Below, one piece after another: positions 8,563 to 57,688 of a stretch of 64,000 nucleotides of DNA; position 1 is the first letter of the stretch, and every line of letters begins with the position of its first letter. Under the pieces are notes generated by a model. The model was not told the DNA's origin. It did not search any database and saw only the letters and a program-made list of their open reading frames with translations. The translations under genes and the position numbers were made by a program. Source of the DNA: a virus. The DNA lies in IMG/VR virus record IMGVR_UViG_3300043411_000610, positions 1 to 64,000 of that record; one strand, 5' to 3'.

Positions 8563-8718
8563 TTAACACTTCCATCGTCTGCGGGCAGCACAGCCTCTAG
8601 TATCTTTACCATCACATCCACCACTCGGTATCCATGCAGATGATCTAGCACAAAAAGATTTTTTACGTGCCCCACCTTCTGGTTGAGGGGCTTTTAGGTT
8701 CGAACCTGTTTCTCTATA
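8563..8718 (-). pseudogene. Start-less 51-codon frame resembling the C-terminal part of a conserved small basic phage protein (DUF6321-like)
   Basis: YRETGSNLKAPQPEGGARKKSFCARSSAWIPSGGCDGKDTRGCAARRRWKC*, in frame directly after the TGA of 8719..9237. Confidence 0.65.
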
Positions 8719-9237
8719 TCAGAATATATCTTGATTATCAATCACTGATTTTAACTTTGAAATATCGTTTTCCAGTGCTAGATTGAAGATTGGAATTCTA
8801 AAATCTTTTGCCATTCTGATTCCCTGTCCAGTGCCACCTTTTTCTTTACCACCGGGTGTCCAACAAATAACAAATTCAGGAACAACTATACACTTAGGAC
8901 CAAGTATGATGTGGCTATTACGGGCCATCAGTTTTTTACCAGATTCGGTCAATCTATCCCATTTTGGATGATATTTTTCTGCCAATTTTAGTGCAGTATT
9001 TGAAAATCCATACAAAGGCGATTTATTATCATTATAATTAGGCCACGGCAAATATATTTCCTTGTCTCCACCATATAGATCAAAATATTTTTCAAACATT
9101 TGATCCGCACCCGATGCTCCACCAGAACGTAGAGTATAACCCGAATTAACTAGTTTATAACACAACGATTTGATCAGTGGTTCAACAGCAGAAGGTGTTA
9201 CTCTTGATCCTATTCCTGTAAAATATTTTTTAATCAT
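8719..9237 (-). CDS. DprA/SMF-like (SLOG superfamily) protein
   Basis: FTGIGSR-x-TP, LRSGGA-x-GAD, EIYLPW, ARN, GGTGQ, IPIFNL motifs. Confidence 0.8.
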   Translation of the reverse strand: MIKKYFTGIGSRVTPSAVEPLIKSLCYKLVNSGYTLRSGGASGADQMFEKYFDLYGGDKEIYLPWPNYNDNKSPLYGFSNTALKLAEKYHPKWDRLTESGKKLMARNSHIILGPKCIVVPEFVICWTPGGKEKGGTGQGIRMAKDFRIPIFNLALENDISKLKSVIDNQDIF

Positions 9238-10247
9238 CTTAATGTTACCCCTAATGTTTGTTCTAGTGCATCTCTAATACCAGATTGAATTTTATCTATG
9301 TCTGCATTAGTCAATGTTTTGTCAATACTTCTATATGAAATACGATAACATTTGCTTGTTTTACCATTCTTAGTGAATTCATCCTTTAATGTAATATCTT
9401 CGATTAAGTCCTTTGACATGGACCTACAAATTTCAAAGAAATGATTTTCTTCATATGTCGGACTAATCCAGAAAGAAATATCTTTATAACATACTGGTTG
9501 ATTTGAATAGGTTTTGAATATTGTATCACCGTTATTAAACTGTGATAGAAATCGAGTGTCAGTCGTCCAAAACAGTCGAATATCAGGAATCTTATATAAG
9601 ATCATTGCTAGGCGTTCTAGTCCTAATCCAAAAGCAAATCCATGTTTATTAATACCACAGTTTTTGAGAATATCTTGATGAATAAGCCCACAACCAAGGA
9701 CTTCTACTAATTTATTATCCCATTCAATTTCTACTTCATATGATGGTTGTGTAAAAGGAAAATAGGAATCAATCCATTTATATGTTGCACCAGGGAATAA
9801 TGAGGCGATCAATTTATCAATAATATTGTTTAATACACTTAGTGCATCATCTCTAGAATCGAAAAGTGCAACTGCTTCCATCTGGTGAAATACCGGATAG
9901 TGAAATTTGTCCACACTATCTCGGCGGTAAACATCCCCAACAACAATAAATTTTTCAACCCCTTGTTTTAAAAACGTTGTCTGATGAGCACTGGTATGGG
10001 TTCGCAATACAGTGGAATTATCTAAATAGAATGTGTCGCTCACACGTCTAGAGACATGATCAGAAGGGATTAGAAGATCGTCGAAGTTTTGTTGTGTGCT
10101 AACAATTGGATTGCTATCCTCAAATATCTCAAAATGTAAATTATTAAGTAATACATTAATGATCTTTTGTTTGATCAGACATATAGGATGATTGTTTAGC
10201 AGATGTAGATTTCTACCTATACAGTTGGATATATTTTCTGGTATCAT
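9234..10247 (-). CDS. pheS: Monomeric mitochondrial/plastid-type phenylalanyl-tRNA synthetase (catalytic domain plus C-terminal FDX-ACB anticodon-binding domain)
   Basis: NFDDLLIP-x-DH-x-SR, LRTHTSAHQ, GDVYRRD..HYPVFHQME, FPFT-x-PS-x-E, GLGLERLAM..IPDIRLFW, then KDISFW..CYRISYRS. Confidence 0.93.
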   Translation of the reverse strand: MIPENISNCIGRNLHLLNNHPICLIKQKIINVLLNNLHFEIFEDSNPIVSTQQNFDDLLIPSDHVSRRVSDTFYLDNSTVLRTHTSAHQTTFLKQGVEKFIVVGDVYRRDSVDKFHYPVFHQMEAVALFDSRDDALSVLNNIIDKLIASLFPGATYKWIDSYFPFTQPSYEVEIEWDNKLVEVLGCGLIHQDILKNCGINKHGFAFGLGLERLAMILYKIPDIRLFWTTDTRFLSQFNNGDTIFKTYSNQPVCYKDISFWISPTYEENHFFEICRSMSKDLIEDITLKDEFTKNGKTSKCYRISYRSIDKTLTNADIDKIQSGIRDALEQTLGVTLR

Positions 10248-10250
10248 AAA

Positions 10251-10862
10251 TCAAACCAATTCCTCCCGAACCCGCATCAGTGCTCGGCCAAGCAAATTTT
10301 GTCCCCTCCATTTATCTATATCACCTGCATCTGGATGATTATCACCTAGACCAATCCCCCATATAGAATCGACCGGAGATGCTTCTGCTAAAATATATTG
10401 TCCGGTTTTAACCAATAGTTCTTTAAGTTTAGGATTTTGTGCAAATTTTTGTTTATTGATCATCGTCACCAACCCAAGTTTTACTTTATCCCAGTGGGCC
10501 TGATCATAGTTTTTAACCTGTCTTCCAAGGTCTTTCGCATCTTTTGGATGGACAGTGTTTAAAATCTGATTAGCAGTATTCCAATCACGGAATATAATAG
10601 CCTTACCAAACATCATTGCATGTTCAGCAGTTGTAAACGTATGTTGATAACCGTCCCAAAAATCATCGGTAAATTCAACATCAAATTCGGTAAGAAATTC
10701 GTCATAATCTGTCCAATGTCGGAAGAACGGATTCCACTCACTGATATCAATTTTAAACGGGGCGGTTAATCCATCAGATAATGCACCGTGCCATTGACTG
10801 AATTCTTTTTTATAAAAAAGAACGATGTTGTTTACTACAGGATAGGTATTATATGTTTTCAT
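10251..10862 (-). CDS. NADAR (YbiA-like) family protein
   Basis: FSQW, TAEHAMM..KA..F-x-D, K-x-LGRQV, KF-x-QN, EASP-x-D-x-IWGIG, GQNLLG..LM-x-VR. Confidence 0.92.
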   Translation of the reverse strand: MKTYNTYPVVNNIVLFYKKEFSQWHGALSDGLTAPFKIDISEWNPFFRHWTDYDEFLTEFDVEFTDDFWDGYQHTFTTAEHAMMFGKAIIFRDWNTANQILNTVHPKDAKDLGRQVKNYDQAHWDKVKLGLVTMINKQKFAQNPKLKELLVKTGQYILAEASPVDSIWGIGLGDNHPDAGDIDKWRGQNLLGRALMRVREELV

Positions 10863-11296
10863 CAGATTGTTATTGTTTTTGGGAAATATATTTGTTTGTT
10901 CAAAGTTTTGGCATAGTTACAAACAGTAAAATGCCAGTGCCAGGGTTTTGAAACACCTAGATCATCTGCAATGTAGTCTAGCACGGAACACTGGCAACGC
11001 AACATAAAAATTCGATAATTTTTAGTCTGACCGCCCACATGAATAAAAGGTGAATAGTTTATTGAGATTTTTGTGCCGTGCCACTGATCAAGCAAATTAT
11101 GATCAACCTGTCCATGTATTTTTTCATTAACTATCGTCAGATGCGCTGAATGCATTGGTGTATTACACTCAATCCAAAGTTCTCTTTGAATTAACCATTT
11201 ATAATATTCAATAAAATCGTGTGAAGTATGGACACGTAGGTTATATCCATCACGTTTGATAATGCCATGTATTTCTAAGTTAAAGTTTTCGCCCAT
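10862..11296 (-). CDS. 2H phosphoesterase-like protein
   Basis: Two H-x-T motifs (AHLTIV, WHFTV) about 70 aa apart. Confidence 0.65.
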   Translation of the reverse strand: MGENFNLEIHGIIKRDGYNLRVHTSHDFIEYYKWLIQRELWIECNTPMHSAHLTIVNEKIHGQVDHNLLDQWHGTKISINYSPFIHVGGQTKNYRIFMLRCQCSVLDYIADDLGVSKPWHWHFTVCNYAKTLNKQIYFPKTITI

Positions 11297-12024
11297 GTCA
11301 AATATATTTTGTCCAAATCAGTTCCATAAAATGAACTGCTTTCAAACGAATTGATTTCTAATAAAAATAGTTTACCACCAGACTCACATATGTCAATAAC
11401 GAAATTTGGTTCGTTAATAAAATACTCGGAATCCGCAATTTTAGATGCTAATTTTTGAACACCTGATGGACAACCGGGTTCGACCTCAACAAAGTCATTA
11501 CCTTTCATATACAGACAACCATCAACAAAGGTTTGATTAATGAAAACAGTTCGCCATTCCCTATCAATTTTTTTGATTGGAGCACTGACGCACATTAGAT
11601 CGTTTGAAAAATTGAGATTTTTTGTCAAATAATTATATTCTTGTATAAATTTTTCTTTTGTCAAAAATACTTGGCCTGCAAAAGATTTATATGGATCTGC
11701 CGGACGTAGATAAAGCGGATAATCATATTCCGAATAATAGTGTGCATAATAACCTAGATCGTTGAAAACCGTATGTCCGGGGGACAAAATATATTTTCTA
11801 AAAATAGGTATCCAAGACTTACAATCTGCAAAATTGTAGTTAAATTTAAATCTTTTTGCAAAGTTTAATGATCCTCTGAAATTTATTGGAGGTCTAGGAA
11901 TATCAATATAATTATTTTTGTCCAATATAATAGTATCAAAGTGATTTTGAATTGTGGACAAATATGTGGGATTATTTTCTTCTTCCCAAAATAAATCTAG
12001 TTGTATATGTAATTTAGGTTTCAT
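11275..12024 (-). CDS. ATP-grasp domain protein (DUF4343/R2K-like)
   Basis: YLRP..K-x-F-x-GQV, REWR..F, FVIDI, LEINSF..S-x-FY. Confidence 0.75.
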   Translation of the reverse strand: MKPKLHIQLDLFWEEENNPTYLSTIQNHFDTIILDKNNYIDIPRPPINFRGSLNFAKRFKFNYNFADCKSWIPIFRKYILSPGHTVFNDLGYYAHYYSEYDYPLYLRPADPYKSFAGQVFLTKEKFIQEYNYLTKNLNFSNDLMCVSAPIKKIDREWRTVFINQTFVDGCLYMKGNDFVEVEPGCPSGVQKLASKIADSEYFINEPNFVIDICESGGKLFLLEINSFESSSFYGTDLDKIYLTWAKTLT

Positions 12025-12080
12025 CCAATAAATTTACACTATTTTACTTGCACTGTCAACTAAAGATGCGATATTCTTGA

Positions 12081-12320
12081 ATGTTAGAATTTATTACATC
12101 AACCCCATTTATTGTCATCTATATATGTTATTCTGTTGTTGGATGGCTGTATCTGTCGAAATACTTTGCTGAATGTCTGGCGGTCAAAGCCCCAACATTT
12201 GGTAATTCATTGACTGCCATGATAGGAATGGCACTATTATGCGGCGGCATTACGACCATGATATTGATCTATACTTTTATCAAAGCACTGGTCATCACCA
12301 TCAAATCGGCTAAAAATTAG
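12081..12320 (+). CDS. Small membrane protein
   Basis: Two hydrophobic segments. Confidence 0.6.
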   Translation: MLEFITSTPFIVIYICYSVVGWLYLSKYFAECLAVKAPTFGNSLTAMIGMALLCGGITTMILIYTFIKALVITIKSAKN

Positions 12321-14780: not shown

Positions 14781-14856
14781 CCGCATGTGTCTGAATAGGT
14801 ATAGAGACGACCCGATAAGTCGTAATAAAAAGGTGCAAGTCCTTTCGTGCGGACCA
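14781..14856 (+). tRNA. tRNA-Ile(GAT)
   Basis: CCGCATG/CGTGCGG acceptor, ACGAC-CCGATAA-GTCGT anticodon arm (C at 33), CCA end. Confidence 0.85.
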
Positions 14857-19384: not shown

Positions 19385-19456
19385 GGCTGTGTGGCAGAGA
19401 GGTTAGTGCATTGGATTGAAATCCCAACAACCCACGTTCGATTCGTGGCACAGCCA
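19385..19456 (+). tRNA. tRNA-Phe(GAA)
   Basis: GGCTGTG/CACAGCC-A, TTGGA-TTGAAAT-CCCAA (one mismatch), TTCGATT. Confidence 0.8.
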
Positions 19457-44344: not shown

Positions 44345-45191
44345 TTATGAATTATTCAAAAATGACAGAATGTGTGCAATAATATCAACTGTCCATCCGT
44401 TACCTAAACACTTTTTACGTTGCGATTCAGAAATACTAGAAGTGTAATTTTCTGGAACTGTTTGTGATTTTTCCCACTCTAATGCGGTCAACCATCTGAA
44501 TCTATTCCCATACCATATTTTAGGTGCATTCATTCCCATTTGTGCCATTAAGCACTGAACCTTTCCGTCTAGTGGTTCTATCCGATAATAATCATTTCGC
44601 ACATATTCATGGTTGTGCCATTTAGTCATTTGTGCATCAGACCAATATGAATATGAAGATTCATTACTATCCAAAATATCAGCCAATATGATTTTTTTAT
44701 CTTCTGGTTGAACTACATTAGGAATATTTGTCCAGTATAGACGTTTGCGATTTTGTGCAGAAACTAGATTACTGTTGATTTTTATAGGCTTAACACCAAG
44801 TATATCACTGATAACATTTTCATATTCCTTTTTCATATTCCTTTTTCATTCCAACATTTTCAAGCAGGAAATATTTTGGTTTATAATGTTTCAGAATATC
44901 AACAAATTCAAAAAATAATTTACTTCTAATATCTTCAAAGTTCAATTGTTTGCCAGAAAGGCTGAAGCCTTGGCATGGACTTCCAGCAATCAAAAGATCA
45001 ATTTCTGGAAGATCCCATTCTCTCCACTTAGTAACATCACCTAGTCGAATAATAGCTGGATAATTTGCTTCTGATACTTTTATTGCATGACGATCAATTT
45101 CAGATGCATAATACGCATCAACCTTTATACCTGCACGCTCTAGTGCAATGCGCCCGCAAGAAATTCCATCAAATAGTGATAATATGTTCAT
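44345..45191 (-). pseudogene. DNA (cytosine-5) methyltransferase split into ORFs 44820..45191 and 44345..44836 by a 13-bp duplication
   Basis: Motifs I-VI in first ORF, VIII-X in second; ATGAAAAAGGAAT twice at the junction. Confidence 0.9.
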
Positions 45192-56339: not shown

Positions 56340-56909
56340 TTAAATCTGTTTGTCAAGTAATTTGTTTAATTGTTCGTTCGCCATCTGTAAGCCTACAAAA
56401 TGAGAGAGTGCCCTGATATTGATTGCCTTACCGGCTTCATAGCAACCATGAGCAAATTCTGGATCGCCTGTTTCATCACAGATGTGTTCAACTAAACGAT
56501 ATTCAGGACATTCATCTAGATAATCAGTCCAATCTTCAGGTAAATCATCACCACCATAATCAGCAATCCATTCAGCCGCATGTTCGCCAATCCATTCATA
56601 TAATTTGGTATAACCATCAATATTATGTGCTTTTCCACAATAATATTCCCAATTATTGTCCGTAAATCCTAAAACTGAAATTGGTCGATAAAAATTATAA
56701 ATCTGTTCGCCTAGATCGCCATAAACCATGAGGCATCCACCAGAAGTTACATAGTGTATATAGAAATTAGAATCTCCTGGTGCTGCCCATTTGAGTCTTT
56801 CAATCTTAGATTTACCTTCACCAAAGACTTCATAGGTCGCAACATGGTCTTTAAACCAACGTTCTCGAATTTCGGTGATTCGTTTTTCTATAAATTCTTG
56901 TTTAGTCAT
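56340..56909 (-). CDS. Conserved phage hypothetical protein
   Basis: F..H-x-A, L-x-V-x-GDLGE, Y...K pattern. Confidence 0.7.
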   Translation of the reverse strand: MTKQEFIEKRITEIRERWFKDHVATYEVFGEGKSKIERLKWAAPGDSNFYIHYVTSGGCLMVYGDLGEQIYNFYRPISVLGFTDNNWEYYCGKAHNIDGYTKLYEWIGEHAAEWIADYGGDDLPEDWTDYLDECPEYRLVEHICDETGDPEFAHGCYEAGKAINIRALSHFVGLQMANEQLNKLLDKQI

Positions 56910-57688
56910 AAAAATAATGTTTCAATTTTATTTTCAACTTTAGTTAGGGGTGGAATATCAAGAATTTCTGTAACGGAACGACGGATAATCAAATTTGGAT
57001 TTTTACGTGCCGCATGTTTTGTGGGTAAGGACTCAATTTCGCTAATATTGAATGCCTTGTCAACCACTTTTCTGCGAATATAAGTTCCGCGTTTGAAGAA
57101 CGAGGGATAATCATTCCAATTAATACCCTTATTCATCAACATGTCTTGCTTTTGTGAACCATTTTTACCATGCAATTCTTTTGCAGAATAAAAATGATGT
57201 GCAGCCATAGAAATCGAATTTTTGGTTGCATCCCATTCTCTCCATAGAAAACAATTGGTGGCTTCTTCAAGTGTCGGAACCTGCCAAACTCGGGCATCAA
57301 ATGTAGGGTTCTTTTTAGAATATTGTGGATAAACTTCGGCAATAAGTTGATTAAATTTAAGAGTCGCTAATGCCGCTAGTTGACTAGTCATTTTCATGAT
57401 TCGTCCACCAAAGAAAATTTGACTTTTTGGATCAGTCACATACCATCCCAAAGAAATTTCGTCAGATTGGGTATAGCCAATATTTGCATTGGTTTCTTCC
57501 ACCAAAAATCGAGTTGTCTCAACCATACAATGACTCATTTTTGAGTCAAATGGGCGATCCATTCCTTTTGTAAAGGATGAAAATGATCGTCCATCAATGC
57601 GTGCAATAACTGGAAGTCTGGGAAGGAATACCCTAGATGATTCGATCCCTTCATAAAATTTCATTCTATCACCCAGTGTGTCATTCAT
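56906..57688 (-). CDS. Thg1-like tRNA(His) guanylyltransferase / 3'-5' polymerase
   Basis: RMK-x-YE, RIDGR-x-F..FT, RPFD, YTQSDEIS, FDAR, WR..DA-x-KNS, KRG. Confidence 0.94.
   Translation of the reverse strand: MNDTLGDRMKFYEGIESSRVFLPRLPVIARIDGRSFSSFTKGMDRPFDSKMSHCMVETTRFLVEETNANIGYTQSDEISLGWYVTDPKSQIFFGGRIMKMTSQLAALATLKFNQLIAEVYPQYSKKNPTFDARVWQVPTLEEATNCFLWREWDATKNSISMAAHHFYSAKELHGKNGSQKQDMLMNKGINWNDYPSFFKRGTYIRRKVVDKAFNISEIESLPTKHAARKNPNLIIRRSVTEILDIPPLTKVENKIETLFL

Follow-up and report, generated by a model that had tools for sequence, protein, structure and literature searches.

An organellar-type, single-chain phenylalanyl-tRNA synthetase predicted in a strain-variable gene cassette of an uncultured large phage

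Introduction

Does an uncultured phage carry a working phenylalanyl-tRNA synthetase (PheRS) of the type classed with mitochondria and plastids, and what might it gain from such an enzyme? Aminoacyl-tRNA synthetase (aaRS) genes are known in phages in general, with up to 15 reported in huge phages (PMC7162821), and the monomeric form of PheRS (PheRS-M) has been treated as an organellar class (PMC11580382). In the paper library searched, no paper on a phage PheRS-M was found. The gene considered here lies in a window of 64,000 nucleotides (the whole stretch of DNA that was analysed), which stands at the start (positions 1 to 64,000) of an IMG/VR virus record of 90,677 bases.

Results

Source of the window

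The record has a CheckV completeness of 65%, from which a genome of about 140 kb is estimated. Alongside hallmark phage genes (rIIA, clamp loader, exonuclease and class I RNR), several DNA methyltransferases and HNH endonucleases are encoded. When 25 kb of the window was compared by megablast with 50,697 cultured or deposited phage records, no nucleotide match appeared, and the best known-phage protein matches of the clamp loader are only ~35% identical. The source is thus an uncultured large tailed phage. The partial record yielded neither an NCLDV capsid gene nor T4 Gp23. The phage DNA occurs in 20 runs from 11 studies, which cover metagenomes of freshwater, groundwater, runoff, wastewater and activated sludge; no RNA dataset was listed for the stretch.

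The PheRS is the sole aaRS on the 90.7-kb record. ARAGORN predicts 14 tRNAs in the record, 12 of them within the window; an Rfam tRNA (52.1 bits) at 14781-14853 on the plus strand is missing from its list. A high demand for phenylalanine was rejected as a reason for the gene, Phe accounting for an unremarkable 4.9% of the phage codons. A scan for promoters and terminators returned 28 sites, which is not above the 22.6 +/- 4 found in shuffled sequences.

Several other genes of the phage were recorded. A Thg1-like protein of the tRNA-His guanylyltransferase/3'-5' polymerase family, a tRNA 5'-end repair enzyme, is encoded at 56906-57688 on the minus strand (PF04446, E 1.6e-27, and Thg1C). Outside the window, at 84076-84768 of the record on the plus strand, lies a PP-loop ATPase gene (PF01171, E 3.2e-26), possibly for a short TilS-like tRNA-modifying enzyme. 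A reverse transcriptase (PF00078) is encoded at L141:10887-12182. A C5 cytosine methyltransferase is distributed over two overlapping ORFs at 44345-45191 on the minus strand, the N-terminal part at 44820-45191 and the C-terminal part at 44345-44836, and may represent a frameshift or a split gene.

Domain architecture and family assignment

The gene and its two domains are as follows.

9234..10247, minus strand: gene for a single-chain phenylalanyl-tRNA synthetase of the PheRS-M type, 337 aa, ATG start (ORF, TIGR00469, PDB matches and model)
9537..10214, minus strand: class II PheS-type catalytic core, residues 12-237 (PF01409 tRNA-synt_2d, E 5.4e-57)
9237..9506, minus strand: FDX-ACB anticodon-binding domain, C-terminal fusion, residues 248-337 (PF03147, E 7.1e-18)

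The initial annotation had described a 337-aa protein with class II motifs and a fused FDX-ACB domain, and the ORF, Pfam, NCBIfam and the fold all agree with this description. The protein scores 346.7 bits with the NCBIfam profile TIGR00469 (pheS_mito), above the cut-off of 258.35, a cut-off that is not fully discriminating in that members of another family, SrmL, pass it too. Membership in the bacterial PheS alpha-subunit family was rejected: the score with TIGR00468 is 193.5 bits, below the cut-off of 237.45, with only profile positions 70-323 matched; no pheT was found in the 90.7-kb record, and the phylogeny separates the two groups at 100/100 (see below). SrmL membership was likewise rejected on a score of 268.2 bits with NF051887, below the cut-off of 300, on PheRS-type motifs and on a position outside the SrmL clade.

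The same annotation had proposed a monomeric organellar-type architecture devoid of a beta subunit and of an editing domain. Consistent with this, a PheT-profile search of the 90.7-kb record (65% complete) matched only the fused FDX-ACB domain, which aligns with bacterial PheT profile positions 689-798. The N-terminal extension of 60-130 aa that is present in eukaryotic members is missing from the phage protein, and there is no organellar transit peptide; the phage N-terminus aligns from residue 2 with other short forms. The GC content of the gene (0.329) and its GC3 (0.243) are equal to those of neighbouring genes, indicating that it is not a fresh foreign insert.

The closest solved structures are those of human mitochondrial PheRS (5MGU and 3CMQ, E ~1e-90), for which the printed HMMER alignments show an identity of ~45% and the Foldseek alignment one of 40%. 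An AlphaFold2 model was obtained from a 44-sequence alignment with a pLDDT of 95.0 and a pTM of 0.90. Its top Foldseek match is 3CMQ in the closed state (TMq 0.94, rmsd 2.3 Å); 3TUP, in the open state, matches at a TMq of 0.71. Bacterial alpha subunits overlay the core of the model alone, with a TMq of ~0.6.

Catalytic motifs and predicted activity

The catalytic motifs of the core, all conserved as in organellar and canonical PheS, were located at the following residues.

Residues 82-89: RTHTSAHQ
Residues 103-110: VGDVYRRD
Residues 116-126: HYPVFHQMEAV
Residues 162-173: YFPFTQPSYEVE (with YFPFTQPS)
Residues 203-215: GFAFGLGLERLAM

Motif 2, motif 3 and the residues of the Phe pocket are intact. 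In an alignment of 44 members, the phage PheRS keeps all 37 of the 37 family-invariant columns, including Ser-298 and Arg-337 of the FDX-ACB domain (S298, R337). In P0001, a variant with 95% identity, 16 residues are different, and all of them lie outside the five motifs. The intact motifs and invariant columns, together with the absence of PheT from the record and a GC content like that of the neighbours, suggest that the protein is probably active, independent of a beta subunit and free of editing.

As predicted from the sequence and the model, the class II core would bind Phe and ATP, combine them into Phe-AMP and load the amino acid onto A76 of tRNA-Phe. Recognition of the GAA anticodon would fall to the fused FDX-ACB domain, in place of the B8 domain of the bacterial beta subunit, and the enzyme appears to lack an editing site. 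Charging of tRNA-Phe would probably be maintained in this way during infection, the substrate being the host tRNA-Phe, the atypical tRNA-Phe(GAA) of the phage, or both. Bacterial tRNA-Phe is a substrate of human mitochondrial PheRS, and the structure 3TUP shows that enzyme in complex with T. thermophilus tRNA-Phe.

Presence or absence of the gene between close strains

The PheRS gene is bordered by two genes on the same strand.

10251..10862, minus strand: NADAR-domain gene, upstream border (PF08719, E 2.4e-46)
9229..10250: presence/absence segment of 1022 nt, corresponding to the PheRS gene (contigs of runs X19 and X20 versus X2)
8719..9237, minus strand: SLOG/DprA-like gene, downstream border (phrog_768, E 1.5e-49)

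Read on the minus strand, the NADAR stop codon TGA (10253-10251) is followed by three nucleotides (ttt) and then by the PheRS ATG at 10247, and the PheRS stop codon overlaps the ATG of the SLOG gene (ATGA, 9237-9234). Public contigs were compared over 8700-12100. Contigs of a sister strain from the wastewater runs X19 and X20, which belong to one study, are 90-95% (~93%) alike to the window; they join 9228 to 10251 with 'CT' between the two sides, so that 1022 nt are skipped and the NADAR gene abuts the SLOG gene. The groundwater run X2, >99% alike, has the PheRS gene, with coverage of 9190-10092. X19 and X20 are labelled RNA-Seq and flagged as probably DNA. RNA splicing was rejected as the origin of the joint, because the two sides are separated by two letters without a match and the flanks diverge by ~7%, which indicates a strain difference.

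The PheRS gene is a single-gene accessory cassette between NADAR and SLOG. It is dispensable to the phage, since a close sister strain does without it. This clean presence/absence of a phage PheRS at the level of strains is what is new here.

The cassette stands in a string of five genes, encoding an R2K ATP-grasp protein, a 2H-like protein, NADAR, PheRS and SLOG. The place of the PheRS gene in this string seems to mark a site of insertion rather than a functional operon, NADAR and SLOG being directly adjacent in the sister strain. A synteny search found no neighbours in common around the homologues in other phage carriers. The phrog_12204 protein encoded at 10862-11296 on the minus strand contains two H-x-T motifs (HLT and HFT) and resembles a 2H phosphoesterase; its gene shares 1 nt with the NADAR gene and 22 nt with the R2K ATP-grasp gene.

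The phage tRNA-Phe

A possible substrate is encoded elsewhere in the window.

19385-19456, plus strand: phage tRNA-Phe(GAA), 72 nt, A73, no encoded CCA (ARAGORN; Rfam RF00005, 57 bits)

The existence of this tRNA, already noted in the initial annotation, is confirmed by the ARAGORN call and the Rfam score. Hand reading gives a perfect 7-bp acceptor stem, A73, G34-A35-A36, U20, a T loop of UUCGAUU (U59, U60), a G15/C48 pair and a 4-nt variable loop, with mismatches at G13/G22 and A31/C39. The D arm differs from the canonical tRNA-Phe D arm of a complete 518-kb phage (G008). The description of the tRNA as atypical is fair in view of its D arm and variable loop. Its body had also been called Cys-like. 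The identity nucleotides (A73, G34-A35-A36, U20 and U59-U60) are, by hand reading, of the Phe type, and a tRNA-Cys identity would require U73. A nearest-neighbour comparison with 101 tRNAs of the examined loci returned no tRNA-Cys among the nearest matches and is uninformative on Cys-likeness; blastn of the tRNA against E. coli genomes gave no match.

The synthetase and the tRNA had been proposed to form a self-contained charging pair. The two do co-occur, but a dedicated pairing is no more than a possibility. The tRNA gene lies 9.1 kb from the PheRS gene, on the opposite strand and within a tRNA array, and the sister strain does without the PheRS. A 222-kb phage (G003, 87% complete) has the PheRS and three tRNAs, for Arg, Met and Asn, with no tRNA-Phe. 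The complete 518-kb phage encodes the PheRS and three tRNA-Phe among 51 tRNAs.

Distribution of the family

Thousands of matches were returned by a protein search with the phage PheRS, many of them 330-345 aa long, devoid of a transit peptide, 50-56% identical and mixed with plant and algal organellar enzymes. Relatives are encoded at 23 loci in IMG/VR. Six of the 23 are on records that also encode the T4 Gp23 capsid protein, among them those of 222 kb and 322 kb and the complete one of 518 kb, and three are on giant-virus records with an NCLDV capsid. Relatives in GTDB are mainly from Bacteroidota (Sphingobacterium, Chryseobacterium, Elizabethkingia, Pedobacter and Myroides); these score as SrmL, and canonical PheS is kept in the genomes checked. 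A metagenome scan found at least 480 relatives, and by a crude motif count 66 of the best 80 among these carry PheRS-type motifs. Against the 50,697 phage records, tblastn with the PheRS detected only host-like PheS cores and one distant SrmL (LR745206.1). A literature search for 'SrmL' found nothing.

The architecture is therefore of the mitochondrial and plastid type, as the initial annotation had it, but extends beyond organelles: it is shared by T4-like jumbo phages, giant viruses, Bacteroidota with a normal PheS and the metagenome loci. The phage PheRS joins a family already known in large viruses and is not a new kind of system.

Some individual members of the wider family are worth recording. 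In a Berkiella-like group with the motif RTHMTCYL, a PheRS-like gene and a Thg1-like gene form a conserved pair; at loci L012-L015, L019, L023, L024, L045 and L047 the Thg1-like homologue (39-41% identical to the Thg1-like protein of the phage) lies ~1 kb upstream of the PheRS-like gene, and several of the 'viral' records there may be bacterial. The only PheS-family match in a Nitrospiraceae MAG is a PheRS-M-type gene on a 59.5-kb contig (JBGPNZ010000002.1, L025), with no canonical PheS in the 2.5 Mb examined, which may reflect a binned virus, an incomplete MAG or reliance on the monomeric form. Sphingobacterium tabacisoli (L026, L030) has two SrmL copies and a canonical PheS in one genome. 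At L029 and L033 the SrmL gene stands alone, preceded by an intergenic region of 230-640 bp.

Phylogeny

A FastTree phylogeny of 277 rows was rooted on canonical PheS. The short viral and bacterial forms make up one clade (SH-like 98) that adjoins the plant and algal enzymes, and the fungal (Msf1), choanoflagellate and euglenid enzymes branch lower. A second tree of 90 rows was calculated with IQ-TREE under the site-heterogeneous LG+C20 model. The monomeric family is split from canonical PheS at 100/100; the phage protein is found in the monomeric clade and not inside ordinary PheS, the placement that the initial annotation had set against its own reading. Shallow clades are recovered for SrmL (100/98), the NCLDV (100/98) and the Berkiella-like group (100/100). 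The phage PheRS and P0001 pair on a long branch (0.64) with no robust sister. The backbone of the tree collapses, and a very long branch (1.35 + 1.35) leads to the outgroup. In an AU test, monophyly of 14 named eukaryote sequences was not rejected (lnL difference 24.5, p 0.232).

Between motif 2 and FPFT, canonical PheS has a spacer of 33-34 residues, most phage, NCLDV and SrmL forms have one of 35-38 and eukaryotic enzymes one of 38-88. These lengths suggest that the viral forms were not merely copied from crown plants or opisthokonts.

Discussion

We consider it likely that the phage gene encodes an active single-chain PheRS-M and serves as a dispensable accessory translation gene, a prediction drawn from its intact motifs and its modelled fold. 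Counted against this reading are the sister strain that does without the gene, the lack of an unusual Phe demand and the singling out of Phe, no second aaRS being encoded on the record. The closest bacterial relatives, moreover, are annotated as a 'mystery ligase' (SrmL) in genomes that also have canonical PheS, so that not every member of the wider clade need be a housekeeping PheRS.

The phage protein could be imagined as an SrmL-like, non-translational paralogue whose PheRS fold serves a different ligation or a side reaction that depends on tRNA, or acts as a decoy that binds tRNA. It scores 268 bits with the profile of the 'PheS-related mystery ligase SrmL', SrmL-type genes occur alongside canonical pheS in Bacteroidota, and an SrmL is also encoded by a 634,780-bp uncultured huge phage (LR745206.1; L143:2962-4041, 359 aa, 423 bits with NF051887). 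That score is nevertheless under the SrmL cut-off and is exceeded by the pheS_mito score, the protein has retained RTHTS and GLGLER, which in SrmL read RTQTS and GLGLDR, and it falls outside the well-supported SrmL clade; we judge a function of this sort very unlikely. A different role within translation would be counter-defence, in which the phage PheRS and tRNA-Phe replace a host Phe charging that is shut down or attacked in infection, for example by a toxin or nuclease, in place of adding capacity. The R2K ATP-grasp, 2H-like, NADAR and SLOG neighbours are typical of conflict and RNA-repair islands, the phage also has the Thg1-like repair enzyme and the TilS-like PP-loop gene, the body of its tRNA-Phe is unlike that of canonical tRNA-Phe, and presence or absence between close strains is the pattern expected of host-specific counter-defence genes. 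However, the neighbours are not conserved around the homologues in other phages, and the adjacency of NADAR and SLOG in the sister strain suggests an insertion site and not a functional unit. Nor is any defence system known to us to act on tRNA-Phe or PheRS, and we hold counter-defence to be rather unlikely.

The initial annotation had further seen in the gene a clue to the origin of the organellar enzyme, with phage-borne PheRS-M as its source or as the vehicle of its spread. It is accepted that Twinkle and the T-odd-phage-like RNA polymerase of mitochondria came from phages. The phage, giant-virus and bacterial forms of PheRS-M are abundant and diverse, and their spacer of 35-38 residues, close to that of canonical PheS, would be ancestral, with insertions in the eukaryotic enzymes. 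These loop lengths, together with the unrejected monophyly of the eukaryote sequences, allow the view that large phages are the ancestral home of the single-chain PheRS and that the mitochondrial and plastid enzyme was captured from this source early in eukaryote evolution. The FastTree topology, in contrast, has fungal, choanoflagellate and euglenid enzymes at the base and the viral and bacterial clade nested by plant and algal ones, which suggests the opposite direction. Under the site-heterogeneous model the backbone collapses, the outgroup branch is very long and the tree does not place the root; the proposed clue, though compatible with the AU result, finds no support as yet. Phages as source or vehicle are in our judgement decidedly improbable, and an ancestral home in large phages is as much of a long shot.

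The favoured reading, that of an accessory PheRS-M, has several implications. The gene acts as a mobile single-gene cassette, in place in one strain and cleanly missing from one that is ~93% identical, and this plus/minus pair is a natural experiment on what a phage gains from its own aaRS. With this gene, a mid-sized phage from freshwater, groundwater and wastewater is added to a little-noticed non-organellar pool of organelle-type PheRS, and the wider family is relevant to the origin of mitochondrial PheRS. A compact enzyme predicted to be beta-independent and editing-free, with a matching atypical tRNA-Phe, might also provide a practical small aaRS/tRNA pair.

Comparison with known systems

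The phage PheRS shares with human FARS2 and yeast Msf1 (TIGR00469; 3CMQ, 3TUP) a two-domain chain composed of a PheS core and an FDX-ACB domain. Its catalytic motifs are identical to those of the mitochondrial and plastid enzymes, and like them it has no N-terminal coiled coil or editing domain, with no beta subunit found on the record. It differs in being encoded by a phage, in having no transit peptide and in its length of 337 aa, compared with 400-470 aa. The stretch from motif 2 to FPFT, 35 residues long in the phage protein, is also free of the insertions of the eukaryotic enzymes, in which it measures 38-88 residues.

The bacterial (alpha-beta)2 PheS (TIGR00468; 3PCO, 1PYS) has a homologous core with the same active-site motifs and is 31-38% identical. 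In contrast to it, the phage PheRS has no N-terminal coiled coil, carries the FDX-ACB domain as a fusion and has no partner PheT found in the record.

SrmL (NF051887), of Bacteroidota and some huge phages, resembles the phage PheRS in domain architecture and length, is 46-50% identical and belongs to the same wider short-form clade in the FastTree phylogeny. SrmL has changed His to Gln in RTQTS and Glu to Asp in GLGLDR of motif 3, whereas the phage PheRS retains both original residues. The Berkiella-like group is altered in its catalytic motifs as well (RTHMTCYL), and those of the phage PheRS are unchanged.

The PheRS-M proteins of T4-like jumbo phages and giant viruses in IMG/VR are of the same family, with 45-56% identity, equal length and equal motifs, and those viruses also carry tRNAs. 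The phage described here is smaller than these carriers (a 90.7-kb record, ~140 kb) and has no flanking genes in common with them. Its PheRS stands on a long branch with P0001 as the single close relative, and it is carried here as a strain-variable cassette.
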